Positions 3,492 to 62,200 of a stretch of DNA of 64,000 nt are shown in pieces. The DNA comes from Eledone cirrhosa (taxonomy: Eukaryota): contig OZ024741.1 in NCBI GenBank assembly GCA_964016885.1, forward strand, positions 176,948,001 to 177,012,000, read 5' to 3'. The position numbers were made by a program, and so were the translations under genes. The notes under the pieces are model-generated. The model had not been told where the DNA came from, made no database searches, and saw only the letters and a program-made list of their open reading frames with translations. Numbering within the stretch: position 1 is the first letter of the stretch; the number at the start of each line of letters is the position of its first letter.

Positions 3492-3551
<60 letters not shown>

Positions 3552-3561
3552 AACCAGTAAG

Positions 3562-3655
3562 ACCCCGACAGCTGAGCTCAAGCCGTTTCGACGGCTAATC
3601 CTGGACTAAATGAAAATTTATCCTGGTATTTAAATAGCCGATCTTCTCAAGGGGT
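3562..3655 (-). ncRNA. Type I hammerhead ribozyme with U3-A8 core variant
   Basis: Minus strand: acccc-TTGAGAA-ga(t)cggcta...tagccgtc-GAAA-cggct tgagctc agctg-TC-ggggt; stems I-III all pair, triplet GUC. Confidence 0.75.
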
Positions 3656-3699
3656 AATTCCATATATGGTCAAAGTGATTGTCAAAAATCAGTAGTAAT

Positions 3700-3762
3700 C
3701 AGGTTTAGCCACCATCTCCCCTACTAATTGCAAATTAGTAGGGGAGATGGTGGCTAAACCTG
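3700..3762. repeat. Perfect 30-bp hairpin with 3-nt loop in the PLE-1 3' UTR
   Basis: caggtttagccaccatctcccctactaatt-gca-aattagtaggggagatggtggctaaacctg. Confidence 0.95.
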
Positions 3763-4775
3763 CCAGTAGGAGAAAGAGGGGAGGGGTGGAGTAGACCCAA
3801 TCAAGCGTTGGTAGTGCCAGCTACAGCTGGGCATGAGGTCAAAGAAGATACTGGGGAGGGGGAGGGGTATGAAGTCGGAACGGTAGGTAGAACAATGGGG
3901 GGTAAAAATATAAATGAAAGAAAAAATACTGAGAGTGAAGAAAAGCGAATAAGTGTAAAGAAAAAAGTAAAGCAAGTTCTACGACCTAGGTCTCTAGCTA
4001 TTGTTAGGCTAGAATAAATAAATAAATAAAGAAAGAAAGAAGTACAGAAATAAATAAAGAAATAACGAAATAAGTAGAAGAACTAGGTGGGACGAAATAG
4101 GCAAGGACCCTTTTTAAGAGGTATAAGTACGTAAATGATACGGTGACGGGTCAACAAAAGGGGCCAAAATACTAAAGAGACTACCACGAAATAAATAATA
4201 AAGGTTTCTAACCCGGTCACAATGCCAGCAACCACCCATGTCAGCAAAGTGAACTAGTACGAGATAATAATTCTGAGTCCCGAAAAAAATATATACTAAT
4301 GCTAACTCTAAAAGATCTAAAACAAGCTACATAAAAGTTCGTACGAAGTAAAGGTAGAATACGGAAAGATAAATTCAGAATCCACCCCGCCCAAAAGAAA
4401 AGCGAAGAAAGAAATACTGAAACGAAAAAAATAAGGCATAAGTGCCACTAAGAAATATAGAAGGCACGGCGAATAGTGGGAGCGGTCGGAAAAAGGGGGC
4501 AAGTATCCGGGGTCTAAACCAACTGCTATAAAAGGCGGAGTCCGCCAAATCTATCATAGACTAGGGGAGGGGGGGGGGGGGTACTAAGGCTACAAGGGGC
4601 CAAAGGGCAGCCTCGGGTGGGCGAGAAAAGACGCCGACAAAGGAGAAGAGCTGGGGTAGAAGGACTAAGGAGAGAAGGGGGAAGGAAATAAGGAAGCGAT
4701 AAAAGAATAAAAAGAAGATCTTACGTCTCCCTTGGCAAGCAGGGGTTACCCATTGCAAAATCGGCAAGTGGTGTG

Positions 4776-6734
4776 TTATAGCCCTAGTCTACCCCCCCCC
4801 CGGTCATTATGGGGTTTGAGGGCGAGGTAAGTCCTACGCAATCTATGTTTACATGCAGTAACCAGTTCATCTTTCTTGTTTAGGAGTTGGTCCGTCGAAA
4901 ACAGCATTTGTAAAGTTTCCTCCGAGCATAAATTGCACGGACGGCGTCCTCCCGTGTAAGAATTGGCTCTGGACAGTAATCTCCAAGTGAGATCATAGGT
5001 GATGTTGTTGTCCTTGAGGTCCCATATGTGGCCCGAAAGTGTAGTGGCGTGACGCCGGGCCGGGTTTCGGAAGGTATGTCTATGTTGGTATAGCCAGGTC
5101 TTGAAGTCACATGCGGTAAGTCCTATATAGGCTTTGTTGGAGGTATCCGTCCTCACGTTGCACTGGTAGATCACATTACGGTCTCTGCATCTATTGTCGA
5201 GTGGGCAAATGGATCTATCCGGACAGTTACACTTCCTGGTCGGTTCTCCACTGCTATTTAGGTTATTTCTGCCATCGGGGTTGAGTTTTTTGTTGTTAGA
5301 GGAGACGATGTTTTGTGCGAAGTTTGGTGTAGTGCTGTAAGAGAGTTTGATGGTATTTTTGTTAATTATGTTGTGGTAGCGGTGTTGTAATGGGAAGTGT
5401 TTTTCAATGAGCCTAAATAATAGTTTCCCGGTGGGAGTTGTCACCTCTGCATTGTGGGGAGGATTTAACCATGTTACATTGCGTGAGCGGCGGTGTCTCC
5501 TGCTGGTTCCGCTAATGGGAGCTGGACAGTAGGATATTTCCTCCCGGAAACCACTCCGCTTGAGGGCCTGGTTGTAATAAGGTGCATGTTCATCGAATAT
5601 CCGCTCATTAGCTGACAAACGGGATATGCGGAGGGAGATGGTTTTGACCAGGTTGTTTGTGATGTTCCTAGGGTGGTTTGATCGGCGGTTGATGTAGTGC
5701 AGATTGTCATTAGGTTTCCTGTATGGGTAGTACAGGTCGTTTTCGAGGTCGAGGGTCACGTCCAGGAAGTTTACTCGGGTCAGGGACGTTTGTAGGGTTA
5801 TTTTAAATCCCCAGTCGCGGAAGAATCTGATTAATTGTTTCCGGACCCGATCTGTACTACTGGGGTTGTACCCTTTAAGAGTAAGGAGCCCATCATCACG
5901 GTACAATCCACCACCGAATGCAGGAAACATATCAGTGAGTTTGGCTATTAGGAATAATCCTATAAGATCTGTGACCTCCGCCGAATCCGTGGCGCCCATG
6001 CTGACGTCGAAGGGTGAGTCGGGAGCTCTTTTTATCCATTTGGAGTCGTCAAAGAGTAAGACTGTCTTCCTGGCGTGGGGGAGGATTTTTCTTTCCTGGT
6101 CGGTGATGGGCACAAGTGTTTCGGCGAAGTCCAAGGCGGCAGTAAGTAGCGGTAAGGTGATTGAAGCATAGTAGCTCTCTATGTCGAACTGTATGAATTT
6201 AGTGTCTCGTTTATCCTCCATATTGCTGAACCATGAGATTACTTCCTGGGTGTTGATCCATAGGCTAAGTCGGGCATGTTGCTTGACTTTTGGTATCACG
6301 CGGTCTAGGATTTTTTTGATGATTCTCCCTATGTCGGACTTCGTTGGGTTAATAAGGCTGATAGAGGGTTTACGGTCAAAATCGGATTTATGGTCATTCA
6401 GTGTGAAGTATGGTGTCCGTGGGTCTAGAGGTTCCGTGCGGTCGGTGACCCCGAGGCTGGAGGTAATTTGTTGTCCATCTCGATTTATGTCCTCGATGCA
6501 AGAGTGGTTGGCCTTTTTATAGGTGGAGTTTAGGCTGCTCCTGATCAGTGTGTGGTATCTGTCAGGGTTGACAAAGTATAGGTTCCCAGTTTTATCCGAA
6601 TGCACCATGATGTCATTTGTGTTATCATACTCTGTTAAGTTGCTACGGAGTTTTTGTAGGAATCGGTTGTGTCTGGGTTTAAATTTAATGTTCTCGACCA
6701 GTTGGGAGAGGTCATTCTCGAAGGGGGAGAGCAA
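4776..6734 (-). CDS. PLE reverse transcriptase + GIY-YIG endonuclease (N-terminally truncated, uninterrupted frame)
   Basis: SDKTG motif; RT motifs [40 protein letters not shown]; Zn linker [15 protein letters not shown]; NVIYQC...AYIGLT; C-terminal [15 protein letters not shown]. Confidence 0.93.
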
Positions 6735-6840
6735 GGGGTTCGGGGGCGGAGATTTGTAGGTAATAAATCCGAATCTCTCCTTGATATATATTTATACATA
6801 CATATATATATTTATACATACATATGTATACATATATATA

Positions 6841-6977: not shown

Positions 6978-7361
6978 TTAGATGTGTTTATATATATATA
7001 TATGGGGGCGCTGTACGTGTAAGCATGGATCTGTGTTTTTGTGCTTTTATGTAGAGATATATGTATTTTTTTCACGCCGTGTTATGTATAGCACACATTT
7101 GTACGATCGAGAAATCTCGCGCCCTTTGCTAAATCTATTAACTGAACATTAAAACAAATATATAATTATCCAAACGAGCTTTTTAATGCAATAACACTTA
7201 GTTAAATAAATTAACGGCCAGAATAACATTACATTATGCTAATCAGGGAAAATGTTCTCATGAAATCATTATATTTAAGTGTACATAAGAGCTATATACC
7301 GTATCTCACTCCGTGGGAAGAAAATGCGTACAGGTTCATTCTGAATATATATATATATATA

Positions 7362-7958
7362 TAAGTTGAAAAAAAAAAAAATGAAAACGAAATTTCATTT
7401 CTCACTCTTAGTATGGCACTTACTTAAATGTAAGTATGTATGTATACGTACATACATATATGTATACAGACGTACAGTAGGATGCATATATATATATACA
7501 TATATATACATATATACATACAGGTACACATACATATATGCACGCATCAGTTTAGCGGACGCTTATTATAACGCCGCTTTGTTCGTTTGTAAACAAAACT
7601 GAACAGCCTGAATTTATGCCATACGGTGTTAAGGCAACCACGTCACCTTTTTGTTCAACACTGACACAGGAACGATGTACTACTTTCAAGCTTGTTAGCT
7701 ATCATCAGCACCGTTTACCCATCTGCCAGATAGTTGAACGTTCGAAAGTATATACTTTCCTTATGAAAATTAACGGCTGAGCAGCCTAATTTGCATATTG
7801 AGTGAGTTAAATCGGTCAGGCATACCGAAAACGATAAGTTGAAAAAAAAAAAAATGAAAACGAAATTTCATTTCTCTCTCTTAGTTTGGCACTTACTTAA
7901 ATGTAAGTATGTATGTATACGTACATACATATATGTATACAGACGTACAGTAGCATGC

Positions 7959-8021
<63 letters not shown>

Positions 8022-8487
8022 TATATACATATATACATACAGGTACACATACATATATGCACGCATCAGTTTAGCGGACGCTTATTATAACGCCGCTTTG
8101 TTCGTATGTAAACAAAACTGAACAGCCTGAATTTATGCCATACGGTGTTAAGGCAACCACGTCACCTTTTTGTTCAACACTGACACAGGAACGATGTACT
8201 AGTTTCAAGCTTGTTAGCTATAATCAGCACCGTTTACCCATCTGCCAGATAGTTGAACGTTCGAAAGTATATACTTTCCTTATGAAAATTAACGGCTGAG
8301 CAGCCTAATTTGCATATTGAGTGAGTTAAATCGGTCAGGCATACCGAAAACGATCAGTTGAAAAAAAAAAAATGAAAACGAAATTTCATTTCTTACTCTT
8401 AGTATGGCACTTACTTAAATGTAAGTATGCATGTATACGTACATACATATATGTATACAGACGTACAGTAGCATGCATATATATATA

Positions 8488-8553
<66 letters not shown>

Positions 8554-8677
8554 CATATATGCACGCATCAGTTTAGCGGACGCTTATTATAACGCCGCTT
8601 TGTTCGTTTGTAAACAAAACGGAACAGCCTGAATTTATGCCATACGGTGTTAAGGCAAGCACGTCACCTTTTTGTTC
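7362..8677 (-). mobile_element. Retrozyme-like tandem array A (~2.7 monomers, older and diverged)
   Basis: Same monomer as 32577-39987; units start near 7362, 7835 and 8355; hammerheads at 7671-7715 (GAAAG breaks stem III) and 8190-8234 (CTGATTA) each carry a substitution. Confidence 0.9.
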
Positions 8678-11545
8678 TGGTGGAAATAGAAATAGAAACA
8701 ACACAACTAACAATAACAATAGCACTAGTACACATAAAGCAGCAGCCTGGAACTCTACTTTTTATAATCCCTCCGATAAATCGTTCGACTTGCGACGAGC
8801 CCACGCCACGAATTTACCATTTAACAAACGCACGCAATTGCCGTCGCAGGTCGATGAACAAACAGAACCACAATTTAGTATAGCCAGATCCGAACTTAGA
8901 AATATTATAGAACAGTATAGCAAGAAGCATAATAGAATGGAGGCCCAGCAACTGGGAGAAAAATCTGCAAATGGCTTGCGTAAGCTCATGCAGCGCTCGC
9001 ATAATGGAGAGATAGCATGTTTTCCAGCAGACAAATCTGGCAGAATGTCGGTTGACAGTCTGCCAAACTACATTCAGGCAATACAACCCCACATCACCAA
9101 CACAAGAGAGGTAACACCACAGGAGCATGAGGATAGAGAAAAAGCCCTCAATGCCCATATGGTGATGTGAACGAATATAATGCAGCCCAACAAAAGGACT
9201 GCCAACAACTTCCAGGCCTGGAACAATGACGTGCCGGCGTTGTATGGGCTTCGAAAAGACCATAAAACGGGCAGTGACCCTGTCGCGGGACCACCAACAC
9301 GGCCAGTCCGTGGAGGTAACATTGCTAGTAACTACATACTGTCCTACTTCCTCTCCCTGTTCATACGCCCCATCATTGAAATGTCCCCAGATGTATGTGA
9401 CAGCACGGAGGACCTCCTCAGCAGAATCGGCGAGAGTAACCGATCTAGGGACCTAAAAGACTGCATAATATGTAGTATGGATGTTGTGTCCCTGTATCCA
9501 TCTATTGACGTGGATTTTGCTGTGGAGAAATGCGTAGAAATGATCAGTGAGAGCAATGTTGAGTTCCGTGGGATTGATACCAGTGAGCTGGGACTACTAC
9601 TTAAACTTACCTATAGTAATAATTACCTAGACACATATGACCTTAGCAACCTGTGCCCTACACGACCAGCAATAGGCAGACCACCTACCATTACTTCAAT
9701 GGCCAAGAAAACCCACACAGATAGATGGAACGGGTGGACGAGAGCCATACGGACACCCGAAAACAACGATAAACTGAAGAAAATGATTGCACATGCGGTG
9801 GGGGCCAGCATAAAACTAACCCTTAAGGAACATATGTTCAAATTTAATGGAAAAACATATGCCCAAGAGGAAGGAGCAGTCATTGGTGTTAGCATTGCAG
9901 GCGACATAGCTAACTTATTCATGGTATGGTGGGACAGTAGACTTAAACTTAAAGAACAATTAGAAGACCCCTTAACCCTGATAATGTACTCCCGCTACGT
10001 TGATGATATAAACATCGTAGTTAAGACACCCCCACTAGAGAAAAACTAGAGAAAAACACAATGGAAAGCATCCAGCAAATAGCTAACTCCATCCACTAGA
10101 GCATTAGAGTTACTATAGACTACCCAAGTAAACACCCCAACCATCGATTACCTGTACTAGACACAGAGCTCTGGTTAGATACCATTAATAACAAAAAACA
10201 AATCCTCCATTCCCATTATGCCAAACCCATGACTTCCAAACATCTGATTCACCGAAACTCGGCCGTTTCGGACCATACCAAAATCAACATACTGATTGCG
10301 GATTTGGTATGGGTGATGAGAAACGTGTCCCGCATGTGCAACACCGGAGAACTAGAGCGACACATACAACACTTCATCCACCGTATACAGTTCTCTGGCT
10401 ACAATCAGATAGATAAAATCAGAGTGTATAGAGGAGCTAGAACCAAATGGGAAAAAATGGTAAATAATGACACAAATGGGACCTGCCCCTTGTATAGGAG
10501 CAAATTTTGGAATAGAATAGAAAGAACTAGGAACAAGGCTAATAGAATAAATTCATGGTATGATAGCAATAAATACCAGAGTGTAATGTTCATCGATAGA
10601 ACCCCTAGAGGTGAATTAGCTTACAAATTTAGAAGGGCCCTAGATAAACATAAACTCGATATTAATATAGTAGAAAGACCAGGTACCTCCGTAAAAACAC
10701 TTATTAGCAAGACATACCCTTTTCAAAGACCCTCATGTATAGATAAGAAATGTATAACCTGCAAAATAAGCCCCCATATTAACTGTAAAACTAGAAATGT
10801 AGTGTATAGCATAAGATGTACTGAAGGACAATGTAGAGACAAACATATAGTGTACATAGGTGAGAGAGCTCGTAGTGTAGGAGAACGGATAAATGAACAC
10901 TGGCGAGACCTTCAAGATAGTAAAGAATCATCTGTACTCTACCAACATGCTAAAATAGAACACAAGGGTAAATTAGATAACATAGAAATAAAAATAGAAT
11001 CTACACACAGAAAAGACACAGAGGCAATGAACATAAAAGAATTACAACCAAAATTAAATAGAAAATATGAGTGGAACAGCAACATCACAACTTACAATTA
11101 AGGACAAAATGAATACACACACACACATAAAACAAACAACCAACCAGTAACATGTAAATAAAGAAATAAATAAATGAACATAAACACACACAGACACCCG
11201 GATGTTCTGCAGGCGCAGACTGAGCACACAACACACACACAGAAACAAAATGGCGTAGGACAACAAAGAGAGGCACAAAAACAAAGAAAGGAATCCCCAG
11301 TCACTGAAGAGGTCACAGAGTGTGTGACGAAAGAACTATGACAATATATAAACAACTATCTGGTTGTGGAACCAACCAATCGACCAGAAATTTATAAATT
11401 TATAAATTTATTATAAATTTATTAAGTGAATGCATGTGGTGCGTGTGTTTCTTATTGGCAACATAACCCTCCCAAAGTACAACAATATCGGTTTCAACAC
11501 ACGATTTCAGATAAAGAATCTTGCTAAACAAATTCAGAAACGAAA
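8678..11545 (+). mobile_element. Penelope-like element family 2, 5'-truncated and pseudogenised
   Basis: Broken ORFs 8678-9170 (PADKSG), 9180-10049 (DVVSLYPSI, QEEGAVIG, YSRYVDDI) and 10229-11101 (C..KKCITC, NVVYSIRC...VYIGE..RS..ER..EH); hammerhead in 3' UTR; same 3' terminus as the copy at 31379. Confidence 0.9.
11300..11342 (+). ncRNA. Minimal type I hammerhead in the PLE-2 3' end
   Basis: gtca-CTGAAGAG-gtcac agagtgt gtgac-GAAA-gaac-TA-tgac; triplet CUA; a degenerate copy lies on - at ~31588-31630. Confidence 0.7.
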
Positions 11546-11624
11546 TATATATGTATATATATTTATATATATATATGTGTGTGTGTGTGTGTACTGAATG
11601 AGTGTTTGTACACGCACACTCCCT

Positions 11625-16850: not shown

Positions 16851-16858
<8 letters not shown>

Positions 16859-18190
16859 AAATAAATAAGTCAAATGTTTAAAATTTGGCTTCGTTTATTA
16901 CTGCTATATACATCTTTGGCTGACATCTTCAGGCTGTCCGAATTAGTGTGGTAGAGGCGAGTACAAATGTTGTTGAGGTGTATAACTTTGTCAATACTCT
17001 GATATGCCTAGTTCCTGGTTGGGTTGTTATTTCACTGAGGAACTGGAATCTTATGAATTCAAACAAACGAATTTCAGCGTCAAAGGACATCTCCCCCATT
17101 GGTCAGCTGTTAGAATATTCCTCAGTCAAAAGTCTATAGAAATTCGTTCTGAGGCAAGCCAGTCTGTAGTTGTTGTTCTTGTTATTGTTAGATACATCTG
17201 ACGTCTATTCTTGTGCTCGTAGTGGTGTTATTGTTGGAGTCAGCTAAAAAAAAAAGTGATAAAGTGGTAGAAGGAATAAGATGGTAAAGTAACAAAATAA
17301 AATAAAATAATCGAATAAAATGTGTATGTGTGTTATAACCATCTCAATTTTATAAAGATTCCCATTGGTCAGTATGAGAGCATTCCTCAGTACAAAGTCT
17401 ATAGAAATTCTTTCTGGGGTGAGGCTCCCTGTAGTCTTTGTCTTTGCTATCACAAACACAAACACAAACACTACATGGAGCCTCACCCCAGAAAGAATTT
17501 CTATTGACTTTGGACTGAGGAATGCTCTCAAAACTGAGCAATAGGAAGTTTGACCTTACAAATCTTTATAACATTGAGATGGGTATAACACATACACGCA
17601 TTTTATTCGATTATTTAATTTATTTTGTTCCTTTACCATCTTATTTCTTCTACCACTTTATCATTTTGTTTTTAGCTGACTCCAACAATAACACCACTAC
17701 CAGCACAAGAATAGAGGTCAGATATACCTAACAATAACAAGAACAACAACTACAGATTGGCTTGCCTCAGAAAGAATTTCTATAGACTTTTGACTGAGGA
17801 ATGTTCTAACAACTGACCAATGAGAGAAGAAGAGGCCCTTTGACTCTGAAATTCGTTTGTTTGAATTCATAAGATTCCAGTTCCTCAGTGAAATAACAAC
17901 CCAACCAGGAACTGGGCATATGAGAGTATTGACAAAGTTATACACCTCAACAACATGTGTACTCGTCTCTACCACACTAATTCGGACTGCATGAAGAGGT
18001 CACAGCCAAAGTTGGCTGTTGCCGAAATATATATAGCAGTAATAAACGAAGCCAAATTTTAGACATTTGACTTATTTATTTTATTTTATTTTACATTACT
18101 CCGGAGTAACCAAACCAACCTGCGCACTTCGTCGAGTGCTCCAATCTGCATACTGAGGTGTTGGTGTACAACCAACATATACTCAAAATT
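16851..18190. mobile_element. Fold-back (inverted) PLE-like 3' end, ~600-bp arms
   Basis: 16851-17445 is the diverged reverse complement of ~17460-18090; the right arm has an extra ~100-bp tail; hammerhead at 17986-18040; (TA)n on both sides. Confidence 0.8.
17986..18040 (+). ncRNA. Type I hammerhead (C3 mutated in this copy)
   Basis: actgc-ATGAAGA-ggtcacagccaa ag ttggctgttgcc-GAAA-tatata-TA-gcagt; the left-arm copy retains CTGAAGA but has lost GAAA. Confidence 0.65.
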
Positions 18191-25566: not shown

Positions 25567-25608
<42 letters not shown>

Positions 25609-25794
25609 TTTCACCATATTTTTTACTAAAGAAGTTTTAGCCCGTATATGTACGTCAATACTCATTTTTTCCATTTCTCTGAGGGTTATAAACCCCACTA
25701 TCGGGCTAAAGTTTCTTTAGTCAAAAATACGGTGAAAGCTTATATTTCTACTTTCTAATTTCTAACTCGCTCACTGTTTCAAAACATACTTACT

Positions 25795-25830
<36 letters not shown>

Positions 25831-26885
25831 AGATAAATCTACCAAAAGTTTACGGTAGTGTCCAATCCGTATGAAGAACTCAATGTATTCCGGATATCAT
25901 GAAAAGAGAAGATACATTCAAAAACTACTTTCGGTGAAAAATAAACGGAAAACAGAGTCAAGATAAATAAATAAAATAATGAATAAACAAAGAAACAGTT
26001 CATTATATTAAAAAAATTCATCATTTTACGATCGTTTCTAGGATATATATGTGTTAGAGTTGGTATGCATATTCTATAGATCTATGTACAATATTTATAC
26101 AAACTATCAGAGGGAATATACATACCTACACATATATATATGCTGTCTTCAGAAATAATGATATTTGTTTATTGTAAAAAAACAAAGATTCAATACAATA
26201 GGTCTGTTTGGAAACAGGTTTTGAATTGACCAATAGAGAGATAGTGAGGGTCAAGATAGTAATATAGTAGTAGAAGAACCTTAAATTATGGGTAGAGGAA
26301 GGTAGATTTCAGTTTTGCATGGAAAAGAATATTATGAATGAAGGATTATTTTAGAGAAGAAATAGGTCTTATGCTGACCTCAGAAATAATTTTATTTGTT
26401 CATTGAATAAAACCAACAAAGATCTAATATATTCTGTCTGTTTGGTAAGAGGTTTAGAATTAACCAATAGAAAGTTAATAATTGGCCAAATGGTAAAATA
26501 GTTGTAATTGAAGCTTATTTTAGGGGTGAAAATAGATCAGGTGGTCAGTAAAAGGTATACAAGCAGTTGCTGTTATAAAATAGTAATGCCAATACAAATA
26601 TCTAAGGTGACTAAAGTTTTACGATAAGAATGTTAGTGAAAAAAATACATCTATGAAAAGAATATAAATTAATTTAATTGATTGGTATATTTATATTGAT
26701 AAAATTACACTAATACATATAGATATGATAAATAAAAGTTAGATGCAGTTGAAAAGTGTTGTTAAAGATGAGGGGAAATTAAAAGAATATAAAAATAATA
26801 TATATATATATACTTATATATATATATATATATACATATATATACAGTTACACACACACATATACACACATATATATATACATAT

Positions 26886-26924
<39 letters not shown>

Positions 26925-28211
26925 CATGCATATATACATACATACATATATATATGCACACACACATACACACATACATATACATATAATTATTGGGGGG
27001 GGGGCATTAAATTTATTAGTGAGAAATAATAATTATATATAGTTTTCAAGGAACATAGAGTCATAACCTGAAGTTAAAGCATTATATATATTTACTTAAT
27101 GGTATCAGTTTTAGGAAATGATAGTTGTAAGAAGGAAAGCAAAATTATGTAGTTCATCAGTAGTAGAATATTAATTATAGGTTAACTAAATTAAAAATAG
27201 TTTATATATTAATTTCTAAAGTGTATATTAATTAGGTTTATAATATTTAAAGGTTTTTCTCAGTTTATGATTACACGATATTATTAATTCCTGTCGCTTA
27301 TTTAATAGGATATCCTTAGATTTCATTATTTCAAAAAGTTCTTGGGAACATAATCTACATTCATATCTACTATTTTGATAAGGGGTGGCCCTTTTGAGCA
27401 CACTCCAGGTCAGGTCAAAATCTATATTCCTCTTTCTATAACTATTAATTATTTCAGCTAGAGATGTTGTATTAGCTAGTGCGCCATTTTTAAAACTATG
27501 TTTGTGGGTATTAATACGCACAAACAGTTTTAAAAATGCCGCACTAGCTAATAAAACATCTCTAGCTGAAATAATTAATAGTTATAGAAAGAGGAATATA
27601 GATTTTGACCTGTCCTGGAGTGTGCTCAAAAGGGCCACCCCTTATCAAAATAGTAGATATGAATGTAGATTATGTTCCCAAGAACTTTTTGAAATAATGA
27701 AATCTAAGGATATCCTATTAAATAAGCGACAGAAATTAATAATATCGTGTAATCATAGACTGAGAAAAACCTTTAAATATTATAAACCTAATTAATATAC
27801 ACTTTAGAAATTAATATATAAACTATTTTTAATTTAGTTAACCTATAATTAATATTCTACTACTGATGAACTACATAATTCTGCTTTAAATATTATAAAC
27901 CTAATTAATATACACTTTAGAAATTAATATATAAACTATTTTTAATTTAGTTACCTATAATTAATATTCTACTACTGATGAACTACATAATTTTGCTTTC
28001 CTTCTTACAACTATCATTTCCTAAAACTGATACCATTAAGTAAACATATATAATGCTTTAACTTCAGGTTATGACTCTATGTCCCTTGAAAATTAAATAT
28101 AATTATTATTTCTCACTAATAAATTTAATTCCCCCCCCCCCAATAATTATATGTATATGTAAGTGTGTATGTGTGTGTGTGTGTATATATGTATGTATGT
28201 ATATATGCATG

Positions 28212-28290
<79 letters not shown>

Positions 28291-28313
28291 ATATGTGTGT
28301 GTGTAAGTGTATA

Positions 28314-28345
<32 letters not shown>

Positions 28346-29096
28346 AGTATATATATATTATTTTTATATTCTTTTAATTTCCCCTCATCTATAACAACAC
28401 TTTTCAACTGCATCTAACTTTTATTTATCATATCTATATGTATTAGTGTAATTTTATCAATATAAATATACCAATCAATTAAATTAATTTATATTCTTTT
28501 CATAGATGTATTTTTTTCACTAACATTCTTATCGTAAAACTTTAGTCACCTTAGATATTTGTATTGGCATTACTATTTCATAACAGCAACTGCTTGTATA
28601 CCTTTTACTGACCACCTGACCTATTTTCACCCATAAAATAAGCTTCAATTACTACAATGTTACCATTTGGCAAATTATTAACTTTCTATTGGTTAATTAT
28701 AAACCTTTTACCAAACAGACAGAATATATTAGATATTTGTTGGTTTTATTTAATGAACAAATAAAATTATTTCTGAGGTCAGCATAAGACCTATTTCTTC
28801 CTTAAAATAATCCTTCATTCATAATATTCTTTTCCATCCAAAACTGAAATCTACCTTCCTCTACCCATAATTTAAGGTTCTTCTACTAATATATTACTAT
28901 CTTGACCCTCACTATCTCTCTATTGGTCAATTCAAAACCTGTTCCCAAACAGACCTATTGTATTGTATCTTTGTGTTTTTTCAATAAACAAATATCATTA
29001 TTTCTGAAGACAGCATATATATGTGTAGGTATGTATATTCCCTCTGATAGTTTGTATAAATATTGTAAAAAATCAATTAGATCAAACTATAAGTTA

Positions 29097-31074: not shown

Positions 31075-31125
<51 letters not shown>

Positions 31126-31127
<2 letters not shown>

Positions 31128-31327
31128 AAAAAGTATGACTCCGATGGCAGAGCTCAAGTCGTTTCGACGGTTTTTTTCTGGACTATTTCAGTCCGTCCAG
31201 AAACAGCCGTCGAAATGGCTTGAGCTCTGCCGTCGGGGTCATAATTATTGCTATTACCCACTCTACTACCCTAAGTTTGGAGAAATCTTGTGCGTTATGG
31301 TCCATCTGCTTCCTTACCACAACTCCT

Positions 31328-31331
<4 letters not shown>
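31126..31331. mobile_element. Mini fold-back insertion of the PLE-1 3' end plus tail
   Basis: ~50-bp arms atgactccgatggcagagctcaagtcgtttcgacgg.. / ..ccgtcgaaatggcttgagctctgccgtcggggtcat around an ~11-nt spacer; between (TA)n tracts. Confidence 0.8.
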
Positions 31332-31378
<47 letters not shown>

Positions 31379-31380
<2 letters not shown>

Positions 31381-31815
31381 TTCTGAATTTGTTTAGCAAG
31401 ATTCTTTATCTGAAAACGTCTGTTGAAACCGATATTTTTATACTATGGGACGGTCTTGTTGCCAATCAGAAACACACGCACTAGTTGCTTTCACTCCACT
31501 TTATTATACATTAAATTATAAATTAAAACATTTATAAATTTCCGGTTGGTTGGTTAGGTTCTACAACCGGACGGTTGTTCATATATTGTCAAAGTTCTTT
31601 CGTCACAGATTCTGTGATCTTATCAGTGACCGGAGATTCTTTACTTTGTTTTGTGCCTCTCCTTTGTTCTGTCCTACGCCATCTTGTTTTTGTGTATGTT
31701 GTGTGCTTAGTTTGCGAATGTTGATAAGTTCGGCTATTTATTTACTAGGCTAAAAATTCTAATTTAGTTCAGATATAGGCTTGAGCTCTGATGTCGGGGT
31801 CATACGTTTTCCTAT
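31379..31815. mobile_element. Head-to-head chimera: PLE-2 3' end (-) joined to PLE-1 3' end (+)
   Basis: 31379-31716 is the reverse complement of ~11210-11540; 31721-31815 matches the sense strand of 3549-3650; (TA)n on both sides. Confidence 0.8.
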
Positions 31816-32545: not shown

Positions 32546-40149
<7,604 letters not shown>

Positions 40150-42760: not shown

Positions 42761-42807
<47 letters not shown>

Positions 42808-42812
<5 letters not shown>

Positions 42813-43285
42813 CAAGGTTTAGCAAATAAGAAAAAGTTTCAAAATGAATTTTAAAAAATTAACTTTACTTACTATGGTTACCTTTATCGAATCGGTTTCG
42901 AGTCTCAAAAATAAACGGACAGTCCATATGGCATCCGTTGCAAGGATAAACTCTCGTCAGAAGGATCTTTTCACTCGGAGAATATAAAATTCCCGAGATT
43001 ATATTCTCCGAGTAAAAAGATCCTTCTGACGAGAGTTTATCTTTGCAACGGATGCCGTATGGACCATCCGTTTATTTTTGAGACTCGAAACCGATTCAGT
43101 AAATGTAATCATAGTAAGTAAAGTTAATTTTTAAAAAATTACTTTGAAACTTTTCCTTATTGGCTAAACCTTGATTATATATGTTCTGGCTCGTTAACTT
43201 ATTAACTTGCCATTGAACCACATTGGCATATGGTTGGACAATACATGTGTCCCTAAGCGCCTTGTGCGTGTAGGAACATATACTC

Positions 43286-43290
<5 letters not shown>
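42808..43290. mobile_element. Fold-back PLE-like 3' end (~180-bp arms) with mirror hammerheads and one-sided tail
   Basis: Arms 42808-42987 and 42999-43180 around spacer aattcccgaga; cctt-CTGACGA-gagttt...agactc-GAAA-ccgattcRR-TA-aagg at 42881-42964(-) and 43022-43105(+). Confidence 0.8.
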
Positions 43291-43370
<80 letters not shown>

Positions 43371-52636: not shown

Positions 52637-55600
52637 AGTTGCATTTATCTTGCTTTATGTTCATACGAGTTATGAACAAGTCACAACCAGTGACCTCAAG
52701 AGACAACAAGGTCCGCCCTGTTCAAGAAAGAACATACATATTCACACATGCATCTTTAGTGTTTAGACTTGTGATGTACTTATATTGACAGAATCGTCCT
52801 TAGTATATGGGCAGTTCCCATTAGTACTATCTTTTGTATTTCTCCTATACGCGGGTTTCCTGGGATTTGCGATATGTAATCATTAGACCCCTTAGGTATC
52901 ATTCCCAGAGCGCCTACAACAACTGGTATTGTTTTAGTTCTCAATTTCCACATTTTTCCAATTTCTATCTCCAGGTCCTTATACTTGCTCAATTTTTCAA
53001 ATGTTTTTATAGATACATTCTTGTCTATTGGAACAGACATATCAATTAGCAGGCATACCCTCTTTTGAAAGTCTTTCAATATTATATCAGGTCTGTTTGC
53101 ATCTATTTTCGGTCTGTTTGGATGCTAAAGTTCCACAAGATTGAGATGTGATCTTTTTCAAGTATGGGAGGTGGTTGATGCTCCCACCAATTCTTTTGAT
53201 GGGGCAGGTCAAAATGCTTACACATTATCCAATGTATGTATTGTGCAGCTCTGTCATGCCTGTTTAGGTATTCGGTTGGAGCTATAGGACTGCACATTAA
53301 AATTATATGGTCAATGGTCTCTGGTTGTTTTTTGCATACACGGCATAATGGGCTGCACCCATTTTTTATTATGTTGGCCTTGGTAATTTTTTGTTGGCAG
53401 ACACTGATCTTGTGCCGATATAATCAGTCCTTTAGTCTCCAATTTCAGTCCAGAGGATGCCAACCACTGATGGGTTAAAGTTTTGTCAACATCAGGATTG
53501 TTAGCTCTTTCTGGGTATTTTCCATACAGAGGCTTTTCTTGCCATTTCTTAGCCAGTTTCTGTAGAAGTTCTTTCTTTGCAGTTACTTTTACCTGCTTTG
53601 CTTTTTCTGTGTTTTCCATTTCAGCAGTAAATGGGACTTCTGAAATCTGTAGTCCATTACTGTATCTTTGTGCATCTTTTGTAATGGAATATGATCTTTT
53701 GATGCTTTCGTGTTTCAAAACGAGTTTGATCATCCAATCATGTGATTCCCTTAGATATGTAGATAATCCAATTGTTGCAGTTTTCAACGCACTGTCTAAC
53801 TGGATTAACCCACGTCCTCCTTCTTTCCTAGGGAGATATATTCTATCTATATCTGCCTTAGGGTGATGCATTCTGTGCATGGTTAAACATTTTCGAATTT
53901 GTGTATCGAGCCTACGGATCTCTGTGCTTGACCAGTTGATGACATTGTAACTGTAGGTTACTACTGGTATGGCAAGCGTGTTTATGGTATCGATCCTATT
54001 CCTTGCATTCAATTCCGTTCTTAAGATTGCTCTTACTCTGCGGTAACATTCCTTCCTTATCCTTTCCCTCATTGTCTAGTGCTTGATTCCGTCTCCTTCA
54101 CAAACACCTAGATATTTGTAAGTTTTTTCTTGATCAAGTTCTCTTATCATGTTCCCCTGATCGTGATTAATGTCTGAACTCTTCAGCAGCTTTCCTCTGG
54201 TGAACGTTGCTTTGGCGAATTTATCTAGTCCAAACTCCATTTTAATATCATCACTGAACTGCTTCACAGTGGATAATAGCCCTTGCCCTTGTTCATCATT
54301 TTTTGCAAATAGTTTCCGGTCATCCATGTAGAACAAGTGATTAATGGTTTTGTCATAGACTTTATATCCATGTTTTGTTTCATTGAGCATTTTACTTAAT
54401 GGCATAAGTGCGATGCAGAATAAAAGCGGTGATAAAGAGTCACCCTGAAAAATTCCACAATTAATATTAACTTCTCCAGCTTCCAGTGATATTGTTTCAC
54501 TATTCAAAAGGAGAGGCGTTTTCCATGTCTTCATACTGAATGACAAAAAACCTCCTGACAACGGGGGATATTTTGAAAATCTCTAAACATTTTTCAATCC
54601 AATTGTGTGGCAAACTATCGAATGCTTTTTTATAATCTATCGAAGCAATCGATAGATTTTTGTGTCTATTATGACAATCTTCTAGTATCATTTTGTTAAC
54701 CAAAAGCTGATCCTTACAGCCATATGAGCCTCGTTTACACCATTTCTGCTCAATGGGAAATAGGTCATTTGTTATCAGGTGGTCAGTTAGGACTGATGTT
54801 AAAATGTTATACATTGTGGTCAAGCAAGTTATCGGTCTGTAATTTTGGGGATTGTTTGTCTCATCATTCTTCGGAAGCAGGAATGTAATGCCGTTAATTA
54901 GCCATGATGGTATCTTTTCTGGCTCCTTAACTATTTCATTGTAAAGTTGGGCTAACAACTCATGAGACTCTGCGAAGGCATTTATCCAAAAATTTTGTAT
55001 TTTGTCTTTTCGAGGGGATTTCCATTTGCTGGTTTTTCTTAGAGCCAAGCGCAACTGTTCAACTGTTATATTTTCCCATATTTGTTCCTCAAGGTGAGCT
55101 GTATCTTTCATTTGTCTGTCTATCCATGGGGCATGTATGTTATGAACTTTTTCTTCGGCCCAGATCTTTTCCCAGAATTCTTGCACTTCCTCCTTGGGTG
55201 GTATTGATTTAGCAGTTATTGTTGACTTACCAATTTTGCTCTAGAAGTTTCTTTGGTTGTTTTTGAACATATTATTGTCCTTATAGAATCTAGATCGTTT
55301 TTCAAAGCGCCTTATACGAGCAGCTTTGGCCGACAATTTTTGCTTGATTATTTCTATCAGCATGTCTATGTCACTTGTTGATTTTATACTGTACTTTCTT
55401 TTCAATTTTCTAAGTTTAGTTTGTTTAACATGTTCACCTACTTTATAGTTTGTTAAAATTTCTGTCAGATCGGAGAAGGTTTATTTGGCGATTGATGTTC
55501 TCTTGCCAAGTGGATTTCTTGTTGGAATTCCTTTGTTTTTCATCTTCACTCCACACAAGTGAGTGGTGAATTTAGCCGATGCATAATAGAGATGTATTAA

Positions 55601-56600
55601 ATCAGTAATGTTTAGTTTGTTTGTGATGATAATGTTTTTGAGAATTATGTTAGTCTTGTGTATTATCTTTTGGTTCTGTTTGGATCTTCTGGATCTTAGG
55701 GAGGGTGTCTCGTTGCCCCATGTCAGATTCTTTCATTTTCATCCATTTGATCATAATTTCATCCTTCAAGTTGGCTAGTTTATTCTCATTCATTTCTTTA
55801 TCATTTACGATCTCATTATTTTCATTTGGGTTTCATCTTGAGCATGCATTCCCTCCACTTTTTCGATCCTTTCTTTAATTTGTTCTGTTGCCAGTGATTC
55901 CGCCCCAACCCTGGGATTCGAAGTGTTACACTTTACCTCGTTTTCACTGACACATATTTCATTTTCTCTTCGCTGACTTTGTGCTAATAGCTTGATCTGA
56001 TCAATTTCTATATCAGTTAGTAACTTTTTTCTTACGATATTTCTTCGTATATTGGCTAGTTTGTTACTGTCAATATAGCCCCTGTTTTCGGGATGTTTCT
56101 TTTTCCAGTTGATATATGTCTGTTCTGTATTCGATGTATTTGATGGGCAGTACATGGCAGTGTAGAAATCTCAAGGACTTCTTTATTATCTTCCCTTGAC
56201 CATTTTTCTCTCTTTTTCTCTGGATTTCTTGGTGGTGAGCATGGAGGGCCAACAGTAGGAGTATTCCGGTTATGGGAGGTCTCCAGCTCCGAAGTGATGG
56301 GAAGGTTTGAACCATTAGCTGATTTTTCGACCCCTGTCTGGTTTCTCTCTGAGGGCCGCGGCCCTTTTTTACCCGGGTGACGGCCGATCCGGTATGAGAT
56401 TTTATCATTAGACATTTACTTTATTTTGTCGCGTTTTATCTTTATCCGGCAAGGGGTAATCATTTCGTGTTACCACTTCTAGAACGAGTGTCAACCAAGA
56501 CTAGAGGGGTCGTTCTCCCCTAGAGACACGGCTATTCCCCGCCGGCCGCCATCCCGGTATTTCATGGTCAAGGGGTTTTCTTTTTTGTTGTTTTTTTTAA
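52636..56600 (-). mobile_element. Near full-length R4/Dong-clade non-LTR retrotransposon (RT + restriction-like endonuclease), frameshifted
   Basis: ORF pieces 56415-52780: NYRPITCL, DYKKAFDS, GIFQGDSLSPLLF, LFYMDD, YKYLG, EGGRGL, RHD..H, PD..D..VP, EK..KY.DL, IPVVVGALG; 3' end abuts (TAA)n at 52602-52635, the known Dong target. Confidence 0.9.
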
Positions 56601-59933: not shown

Positions 59934-62200
59934 GCAGTAAATGGAACTTCTGAAATTTGTAGTTCATTACTGTATCTTTGTGCATCTTTTGTAATGGAGT
60001 ATGATCTTTTGATGGTTTCATGTTTCAAAACAAGTTAGATCATCCAATCATGTGATTCCCTTAGATATGTAGATAATCCAATTGTTGCAGTTTTCAAAGC
60101 AATATCTAACTGGATTAATCCACGTCCTCCTACTTTCCTAGGGAGATATGTTCTATCTGTATCTGCCTTAGGGTGATGCATTCTGTGCATGGTTAACAAT
60201 TTTCTAATTTTTGTATCGAGCCTACGGATCTCTGTGTTTGACCAGTTGATGACATTGAAACTGTAGGTTACTACTGGTATGGCAAGCGTGTTTATGGCAT
60301 CGATACTATTACTTGCATTCAATTCCGTTCGTAAAATTGGTCATACTCTGCGGCAACAGTCCTTCCTTATCCTTTAACTCATTGTCGAGTGCTTGAATCC
60401 GTCTCCTTCACAAACACCTAAATATTTGTAAGTTACCTCTTGATCAATTTCTCTTATCACATTTACCCGATCAAGATTAATGTCTGAACTTCTCAGCAGC
60501 TTTCCTCTGATGAACGTGGCTTTGGCGCATTTGTCTAGTCCAAACTCCATTTTAATATCATCACTGAACTGCTTCACAGTGGATAATAGCCCTTGCAATT
60601 GCTCACCATTTTGCAAATAGTTTCAGGTCATCTATGTAGAACAAGTGATTAATCGTTTTGTCATAGACTTTATATCCATGTTTTGTTTCCTTGTGAATTT
60701 TATTTAATGGTATATGTGCGATGCAGAATAAAAGCGGTGATAAAGAATCACCCTGAAAAATTCCACAATTAATATTAACCTCTTCAGCTTCCAGTGAAGT
60801 TTTTTTTTAATATTCAAATGGAGTGTCGTTTTCTATGTCTTCATACTGAATTTACAGGAACCTCCTGACACCGGGAGATATTTTGAAAATCTCTAAACAC
60901 TTTTCTTCAATCCCACTGTCTGGCAAACTATCGAACGCTTTTTTGTAATCTATCCAAGCAATTGATAGATTTTTGTGTCTATTGTGACAATCTTCCACTA
61001 TCATTTTGTTAACCAAAAGCTGATCTTTACAGCCATATGAGTCTCGTTAACGCCCTTTCTGCTCATCGGGAAATAGATCATTTGTTATCAGGTGATCATA
61101 TGTATATTTATTTAGGTCTGATGTTAACATTTCATACATTGTGGTCAAACATGTTATCGGTCTGTAATTTTTGAGATTGTTTGTCTCATCACTCGGAGGT
61201 AGAATGTAATTCCGTTCATCATGGCATCTTTTCTGGCTCGTTAACCATTTCATTGTAAAGTTGGGCTAACAGCTCATGAAACTCTGTTAAGTCACTTATC
61301 CAAAACTTTGGTATTTTGTCTTTCTCTGGGGATTTCCATTTGCTGGATTTTCTAAGAGCTAAATGCAAATATTCAAGTTATATTTTCCCATGTTTGTTCC
61401 TCAAGGTAAGTTGTATCTTTCATTTGTCTGTCTATTCATGGGGCATGTATATCATGAACCTTTTCTTCGGCCCAGATCTTTTCCCAGAATTTTTGCACTT
61501 CCTCCTTGGGTGGTATGGATTTAGCAGTTATTATTGACTTGCCCATTTTTCTGTAGAAGTTTCTTTGGTTGTTTTTGAATATATTATTTTCCTTATAGAA
61601 TCTAGATCGTTTTTCAAAGCGCATTATACAAGCAGCTTTGGCCGACAGTTTTTGCTTGATTATTTCTATCAGCATGTCTATGTCACTTGTTGATTTTATA
61701 CTGTATTTTCTTTTCAATTTTCTAAGTTGAGTTTGTCAACATGTTCACCTATTTTGTAGTTTGCTAAACTTTCTATGTCAGATCGGAGAAGTTTTATTTG
61801 GCGATTGATGTTGTCTTGTGAAGTAGGTCTTTTGTGGGAATTCCTTTGTTTTTTTTCCTTTTCACTCCACATAAGTGAGTGGTGACTTTAGCTGATGTAT
61901 AATAGAAAGGATTGAGATCAGTAATGTTTAGTTTATTTGTGATGATAATGTTTTTGAGATTGATGTACTATCTTTTGGTTTTGTTTGGGGTTCTGAATCT
62001 TAGGGAGAGTGTCTCGTTCCCCCATGTCTGATTCTTTCATTTGCATCCATTCGATCATAATTTCATTCTTCAATCATAATACGATCATGAATTCATTCCT
62101 TTTTTTGATCATTGACGGTCTCATTGTTTTCATTTTGTGTTTCATCTTTAGCATGCACTCATTCCACTTTTTCGATCCTTTCTTTAATTTATTCTGCTGT
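59934..62200 (-). mobile_element. Second, more decayed R4/Dong copy, truncated at both ends
   Basis: Colinear with 53623-55890 (GLLSTVKQFSDDIKMEFGLDKCA, NYRPITCLTT, KVGGRGL); ends at (AGT)n 62202-62355. Confidence 0.88.

Follow-up and report, generated by a model that had tools for sequence, protein, structure and literature searches.

Paired long and short ends point to mobilization by Penelope-like elements of a retrozyme found fused head-to-head with one such element

Whether the point at which two mobile elements meet can reveal the enzyme that moved them is the question raised by a compound insertion at positions 7362 to 11545 of the window, the 64,000-nt stretch of a 3.0-Gb genome analyzed here. 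Its left part is a retrozyme-type tandem array, and its right part is a 5'-truncated Penelope-like element (PLE), PLE-2. The original prediction held that the two target strands had primed reverse transcription on different RNAs and that the junction nominates PLE-2 as the mobilizer of the retrozyme. Its structural description proved correct: the monomer, on the minus strand, switches at 8677/8678 into PLE-2, on the plus strand, without a spacer, the join being blunt with 0 bp of microhomology and no filler, and both 3' ends of the fusion face outward into (TA)n (left tract, 7345 to 7361; right tract, degenerate, 11546 to 11576). It had also been stated that each outer end recurs elsewhere. 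Indeed, the retrozyme end was found at 678 genomic sites and the PLE-2 end at 11,537, but the copy at 31379 that had been cited for PLE-2 is a relative belonging to another subfamily, because it is only 83% identical to PLE-2.

The array (7362 to 8677, minus strand) comprises 2.7 monomers of 471 bp and an internal (TA)n tract, stops at the long 3' end described below (E1), and is without an inverted arm. The unit is tandem and non-coding (no ORF of note), and its period falls within the size range of about 50 to 1,000 bp of retrozyme units. On the minus strand, the full monomer carries a 7-bp helix I, a CUGAUGA box, a 4-bp helix II, GAAA, and a 2-bp helix III, a combination that we take to define a minimal type I hammerhead. 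Two cores of this type lie in the array on the minus strand, each with a private substitution, which breaks a helix III pair in monomer 1 (7684 to 7708) and alters the CUGAUGA box in monomer 2 (8203 to 8227). A young self-inverted array of the same retrozyme at 32574 to 39987 served as the reference case; it extends from a short end at 32574 to a long end at 39987, with the inversion point at 37575/37577, and has 15 intact hammerhead cores, with helix I/II pairing present in 15 units, and the array at 7362 to 8677 is 91 to 92% identical to it, TA-length differences included. An Rfam search gave no match at the gathering score, and the minimum-energy fold differs from the hammerhead fold (z of −0.8 to −1.2). 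Called on motif and pairing only, the retrozyme hammerhead is a candidate ribozyme.

The retrozyme is dispersed, with the 678 long-end sites next to TA belonging to subfamily A and 1,746 pattern matches genome-wide, some counted twice, to subfamily B. In young arrays the monomers are identical within the array. Related retrozyme sequence is carried by two other organisms, as found in public contigs and reads compared with positions 7004 to 7950 (7335 to 7538 being skipped as repeat). The flank adjoining the left tract (7004 to 7346) is single-copy, and no second haplotype was found for it. At two loci, L003 and L004 (C2:362.2 and 362.5 Mb), one retrozyme insertion and its flanks are present twice, by either segmental duplication or a haplotig. 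By inspection, non-inverted retrozyme 5' ends seem clustered at monomer positions 320 to 393, around and just upstream of the hammerhead (L022, L031, L067, L069, L075, L076, L085, L087, L089, and L095). Another foldback family, at L163:2087-2634, bears a hammerhead and an upstream segment like those of the retrozyme and has a 67-nt tail with a similar hairpin; it is a possible relative or a possible link to the parent PLE.

As far as the accessible parts of the two reports go, the retrozyme resembles metazoan non-LTR retrozymes in being a non-coding tandem repeat, each unit of which bears a candidate type I hammerhead, and in its presence as many scattered copies alongside PLEs (PMC7229834; bioRxiv 10.64898/2026.07.22.740005). 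It differs from them in that its candidate hammerhead is of the minimal, PLE-type form and in that it inserts into (TA)n as inverted pairs whose long and short ends are fixed, a pattern not found in the accessible text of either report; the words "tail," "inverted," and "microsatellite" are absent from that of PMC7229834. No homology of the retrozyme to a PLE pseudo-LTR was found among the fetched loci. Moreover, a literature search that took in few subscription journals returned no paper on paired retrozyme ends or retrozyme-PLE fusions. The retrozyme is probably of a kind already known, and the fusion is probably an ordinary one.

The PLE-2 half begins with an ORF remnant (8678 to 11101, plus strand) that is 5' truncated and encodes a reverse transcriptase (RT) plus a GIY-YIG domain at the C terminus, with a CX4CxxC linker; the RT motif lies at 9996 and the GIY-YIG region near 10853. 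The frame has decayed by a stop at 9168 to 9170, a frameshift near 10042, and an in-frame deletion near 11017. Downstream are the minimal hammerhead of the pseudo-LTR, recognized by motif (11304 to 11338, plus strand), and a tail that separates the short end, E2, from E1 by about 60 nt (11485 to 11545, plus strand); the copy stops at E1. In Pfam, the window copy gave a weak RVT_1 match below the cut-off (E value of 5e-5), intact PLE ORFs, including that of PLE-2, gave no useful match, and a PDB sequence search with the RT piece gave none. In a naturally intact PLE-2 copy, the DKS, YVDD, VVY..YIGET, and linker motifs could be read by eye. PLE-2 has the features by which PLEs are recognized, namely, a single ORF with a PLE-type RT and, at the C terminus, a GIY-YIG with internal cysteines, a pseudo-LTR with a hammerhead, tandem or inverted copies, and a tail at one end. 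Going by the motifs given in the accessible part of PMC8557442, PLE-2 appears to be of the Neptune/Nematis type, and PLE-1 (another PLE of the window) and families F4, F5, and F8 of the Hydra type, by motif only. These elements share with the endonuclease-bearing PLEs of that report an RT with C-terminal GIY-YIG, a pseudo-LTR hammerhead, 5' truncation together with inverted 5' copies, a tail at one end, and (TA)n targeting.

The retrozyme and PLE-2 each have two 3' ends beside (TA)n, the long end E1 and the short end E2, located 55 to 60 nt upstream. How these ends are combined was scored by eye from BLAST output and printed junctions. For subfamily A, 100 listed E1 sites of the 678, from chromosome C1 and the start of C2, comprised 68 self-inverted insertions, 23 ending in TA, 7 joining other DNA directly, and 2 running off; the far arm of the self-inverted insertions stopped at E2 in 56 cases and at E1 in none, 12 being unreadable because they were interrupted, were cut, or ran off. 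For subfamily B, the first 40 distinct E1 sites gave 24 self-inverted, 10 TA, and 6 direct cases, with far arms at E2 (18), at E1 (0), or unreadable (6). Altogether, 92 of 140 retrozyme sites were self-inverted, and every readable far arm (74/74) was at the short end, 55 to 60 nt short of the full end. Reciprocally, among 22 distinct retrozyme E2 sites (30 loci, 8 duplicates dropped), 16 reached E1 on the other arm, none stopped at E2, 2 were unreadable, and 4 were not inverted. The PLE-2 sample, 40 of the first 44 listed of its 11,537 E1 sites (4 overlapping fetched loci were skipped), held 23 E1+E2 pairs, 1 E1+E1 pair, 4 other inversions, 5 ends in TA, and 7 direct joins. Long-plus-long self-inversion does therefore occur in PLE-2, at L279 and, outside the 40-site sample, at L018.

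Tail length, that is, the spacing of the two ends, is a family trait. A survey of TA-flanked foldbacks in the fetched loci gave 35 tail clusters, several of them spurious, and the recurrent tails were family-specific: 58 to 60 nt in PLE-2 (21 foldbacks), about 80 nt in PLE-1, 83 to 93 nt in F4, mostly 79 to 96 nt in F8, and 97 and 130 to 137 nt in other families. The retrozyme tail of 55 to 60 nt is thus like that of PLE-2, while the common Hydra-type families have about 80 to 90 nt; two further families have tails of 58 to 60 nt, with a single example each. The likeness to PLE-2 is one of length alone, since BLASTN of the monomer against PLE-2 within the window gave no match and hence no shared 3' end sequence. 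Unlike the tails of 30 to 40 bp in the accessible part of PMC8557442, those observed here span 58 to 137 nt and are family-specific. A RAGTRCT-like word occurs within the tails of many families; it is absent from PLE-2 and has a loose match only in the retrozyme.

In the accessible part of PMC11167929, a PLE protein is shown to cut both strands and to extend them, with initiation at two sites, and the intervening tail is given as a signature specific to PLEs. Like Poseidon PAc in that study, the elements described here have two start sites with a tail between and extend both strands; unlike Poseidon PAc in vitro, for which no start-site difference between strands was reported there, the arms here nearly always use different sites. 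Because retrozyme insertions carry this PLE tail signature, there is good evidence that some PLE mobilizes the retrozyme, which we consider very likely on the pattern of its ends. PLEs had been called strong candidates for retrozyme mobilization (PMC7229834), and the case had been argued from co-occurrence and pseudo-LTR homology (bioRxiv 10.64898/2026.07.22.740005), as far as the available portions of these papers show. In addition to that earlier basis of shared ribozymes, co-occurrence, and pseudo-LTR homology, the paired ends supply mechanism-level support: the PLE tail signature is present on the retrozyme insertions themselves, at hundreds of sites and with near-strict long/short pairing. 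The pairing also marks out two places on the retrozyme RNA as start sites, which makes the question of the partner testable in vitro. Hence, the proposed link between the retrozyme and PLE machinery stands, supported by the paired ends, whereas the junction does not name PLE-2 as the mobilizer. Similarly, priming of both target strands does occur in this genome, although the claim that it happened in one event at this junction is weakly supported.

The latter point follows from a comparison with other junctions. Recurrence of retrozyme-PLE-2 junctions was not borne out: no retrozyme site was fused to PLE-2 in either sample (0/140 long-end and 0/22 short-end sites). A search for loci with both retrozyme and PLE-2 ends returned retrozyme arrays only, with no PLE-2 fusion in 29 overlapping loci, which were excluded from the 140 and 22 counted. 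The exact junction was found once, in a genome search in which 40 of 1,255 candidates were scored. One further retrozyme-PLE-2 fusion, L017, was present among 9 long PLE-2 copies; its ends are E1+E2 and its join has 3 bp of microhomology. Head-to-head partners of the retrozyme in the sample were F4 twice (L069 and L095) and F3 or an F3-like family twice (L074 and L317); F4, for which 14,877 long ends were counted, is a PLE of the Hydra type. PLE-2 is likewise joined head-to-head, at L259, to an AP-endonuclease-like ORF (Pfam PF14529; E value of 4e-4, below the cut-off), and within the window a spacer-free head-to-head fusion without retrozyme lies in (TA)n at 31379 to 31813, where a long PLE-2-related 3' end (minus strand) meets a short PLE-1-related 3' end (plus strand). 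With that fusion included, five of seven head-to-head hetero-fusions are E1+E2 and two of seven E1+E1; the five fit single events and also chance, so that genuine two-RNA events may exist, but not with PLE-2 alone. Neither enriched junctions nor a shared 3' sequence, the two features that would specify PLE-2 as mobilizer, was observed.

Spacer-free joins are nothing out of the ordinary, occurring at 13 of 140 retrozyme sites and 7 of 40 PLE-2 sites, where PLE-2 5' ends join unrelated DNA directly (three LINE-like by eye and one with the weak AP-endonuclease match). Direct head-to-tail joins of the retrozyme into PLE ORFs (L031, L092, and L167) are about as common as head-to-head ones and were not twin-primed, because twin priming cannot produce that orientation. 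Where a genome is rich in (TA)n, a single spacer-free junction is thus poor evidence for a partner. At L167:1500-2950 and at L031, the retrozyme is joined in sense into a Hydra-type PLE ORF, and the PLE next turns back on itself as far as its long end. Of the two, L167, which looks age-matched and has short-plus-long outer ends, is a candidate for a template jump. Insertions nested within the TA tract of the retrozyme itself were found at L063, L064, and L066. L095 was considered as proof of sequential insertion and rejected, as the flanking retrozyme parts come from different arrays (about 30 differing sites). Short templated or snap-back filler occurs at the inner junctions of L003, L044, L069, L074, and L095, similar to what polymerase-theta end joining leaves.

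The two halves of the window fusion also seem to differ in age, with a divergence of 2.1 to 2.4% for PLE-2 and 1.0 to 1.1% for the retrozyme. In the PLE-2 half, 68 of 2,804 sites differ from the majority of 9 relatives, 59 of these being shared with none; a genome search with 501 bases gave a best match with about 16 mismatches in 499, and no sister of this copy was found among 40 scored of 2,188 candidates. The three monomers have 11 to 12 private changes in 1,091 sites. For all substitutions, the halves differ with a Fisher P value of 0.008 to 0.044 (0.02 to 0.06 after a rough spectrum correction); transversions alone do not separate them (9/1,091 for the retrozyme versus 29/2,804 for PLE-2, P = 0.72), so that the gap rests on transitions. 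RNA editing and CpG decay were rejected as sources of the excess transitions, since these show no bias between strands and only 3 of them are at CpG. As a control, all 10 self-inverted PLE-2 arm pairs examined agreed in divergence (P of at least 0.08). A greater age of the PLE-2 half is therefore suggestive only. The mismatch is reversed in L017, whose retrozyme seems older (8/238 versus 31/2,842, P = 0.008). The retrozyme looks younger in five of six head-to-head fusions, a trend that may be biased, as the retrozyme was measured partly within its array and the partners against a sample; at L074, the comparison of 1/1,224 with 3/180 (P = 0.008) is weak, as just one of the changes is wholly private, and the others gave P values of 0.01 to 0.08 (L095), 0.08 (L069), and 0.10 (L317).

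We favor, at a probability of roughly 0.6, an origin of the fusion by two separate insertions in the same (TA)n neighborhood and a deletion, after or during them, that removed the inner ends. Many hammerhead- or tail-bearing families stack in (TA)n tracts, and the normal insertion consists of two inverted arms, one with the long 3' end and the other with the short one. In general, a PLE protein would cut both (TA)n strands, and reverse transcription would start at two fixed sites 55 to 60 nt apart on one template, which for the retrozyme is probably a circular RNA, giving identical tandem monomers. At this locus, PLE-2 may have inserted first; the retrozyme would then have used the TA tract on the 5' side of PLE-2, and end joining would have lost the inner short-end arms of both insertions. 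If the locus arose by such stacking and deletion, the junction does not identify the enzyme, and the paired ends point to some PLE. A single double-strand cut in (TA)n, extended on one side on retrozyme RNA and on the other on PLE-2 RNA, with the cDNAs then end-joined, is a serious but doubtful alternative. In its favor, each outer end coincides exactly with a family end in (TA)n, and the halves are bluntly joined; purified PLE protein, modeled as a dimer, cuts and extends both strands (PMC11167929); and, in the accessible parts of the reports, opposite-orientation LINE-1 insertions from two RNAs are described (PMC11702581, PMC13174262), in which, as in twin priming, two reverse-transcribed sequences stand head-to-head in one target site. 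For those LINE-1 chimeras, validation came from target-site duplications or from capture de novo, whereas duplications are hidden here because the target is (TA)n, and, unlike the adjacent pieces of LINE-1 twin priming, the arms of ordinary insertions here overlap in sequence. The second retrozyme-PLE-2 fusion, L017, is long plus short, but the window ends are long plus long, against 74/74 retrozyme and 23/24 PLE-2 pairs that are long plus short, so the pairing of a single event is lacking. The apparent age mismatch in both fusions and the absence of PLE-2 from 162 sampled retrozyme ends, with F4 and F3 fusing too, also speak against a two-RNA event. Furthermore, one template is the default, because the two arms within a self-inverted array resemble each other more than separate loci do (at most 2 mismatches in 7 of 12 pairs, against 12% between loci, with 2 pairs left out as separate insertions).

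Even a two-RNA event would name PLE-2 only if one complex, a PLE-2 dimer, did both sides, in which case E1+E2 would be expected; with two separate complexes at one cut, the junction names no mobilizer. The match in tail length is the sole independent hint of PLE-2, countered by the two other families with tails of 58 to 60 nt. A wider scheme, in which PLEs prime both (TA)n strands at two fixed RNA sites, always long plus short and with family-specific spacing, the retrozyme has adopted the spacing of the Neptune-type PLE-2, its mobilizer, and some hetero-fusions, possibly that of the window, are one-complex captures of retrozyme and PLE RNA, seems unlikely to us. Improbable, too, is that one part was brought in from elsewhere by ectopic recombination, by gene conversion, or in the repair of a break or that a read-through transcript of an already fused locus was retrotransposed as a unit. 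The blunt junction, the abundance of both families, and templated filler at other junctions (L003, L044, and L069) agree with such an origin, but neither a second copy of the junction nor a sister of the PLE-2 copy was found among the candidates scored in the searches above, and a single transcript cannot yield two exact outward-facing 3' ends. An assembly artifact joining two repeats is most improbable: although both sides are repeats and the junction is known from the assembly alone, private variants lie close to it in both halves, the flank on the left is single-copy, and many loci have comparable joins.

Upstream of the fusion, PLE-1 (3550 to 6783, minus strand) is a second 5'-truncated PLE, flanked by (TA)n. 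Its open frame of 671 aa is of the Hydra type by motif, shares 41% identity with family F8 across 518 aa, and could not be aligned to PLE-2. More TA-flanked foldbacks lie at 16851 to 18089, 25606 to 25797, 26087 to 29067, 31123 to 31330, and 42804 to 43306; in at least three of them, one arm carries a tail, of 58, about 80, and 131 nt, respectively. Finally, two copies of an RT-bearing element with RVT_1 matches, 88% identical to each other, are present at 53311 to 55890 and 59934 to 62199.
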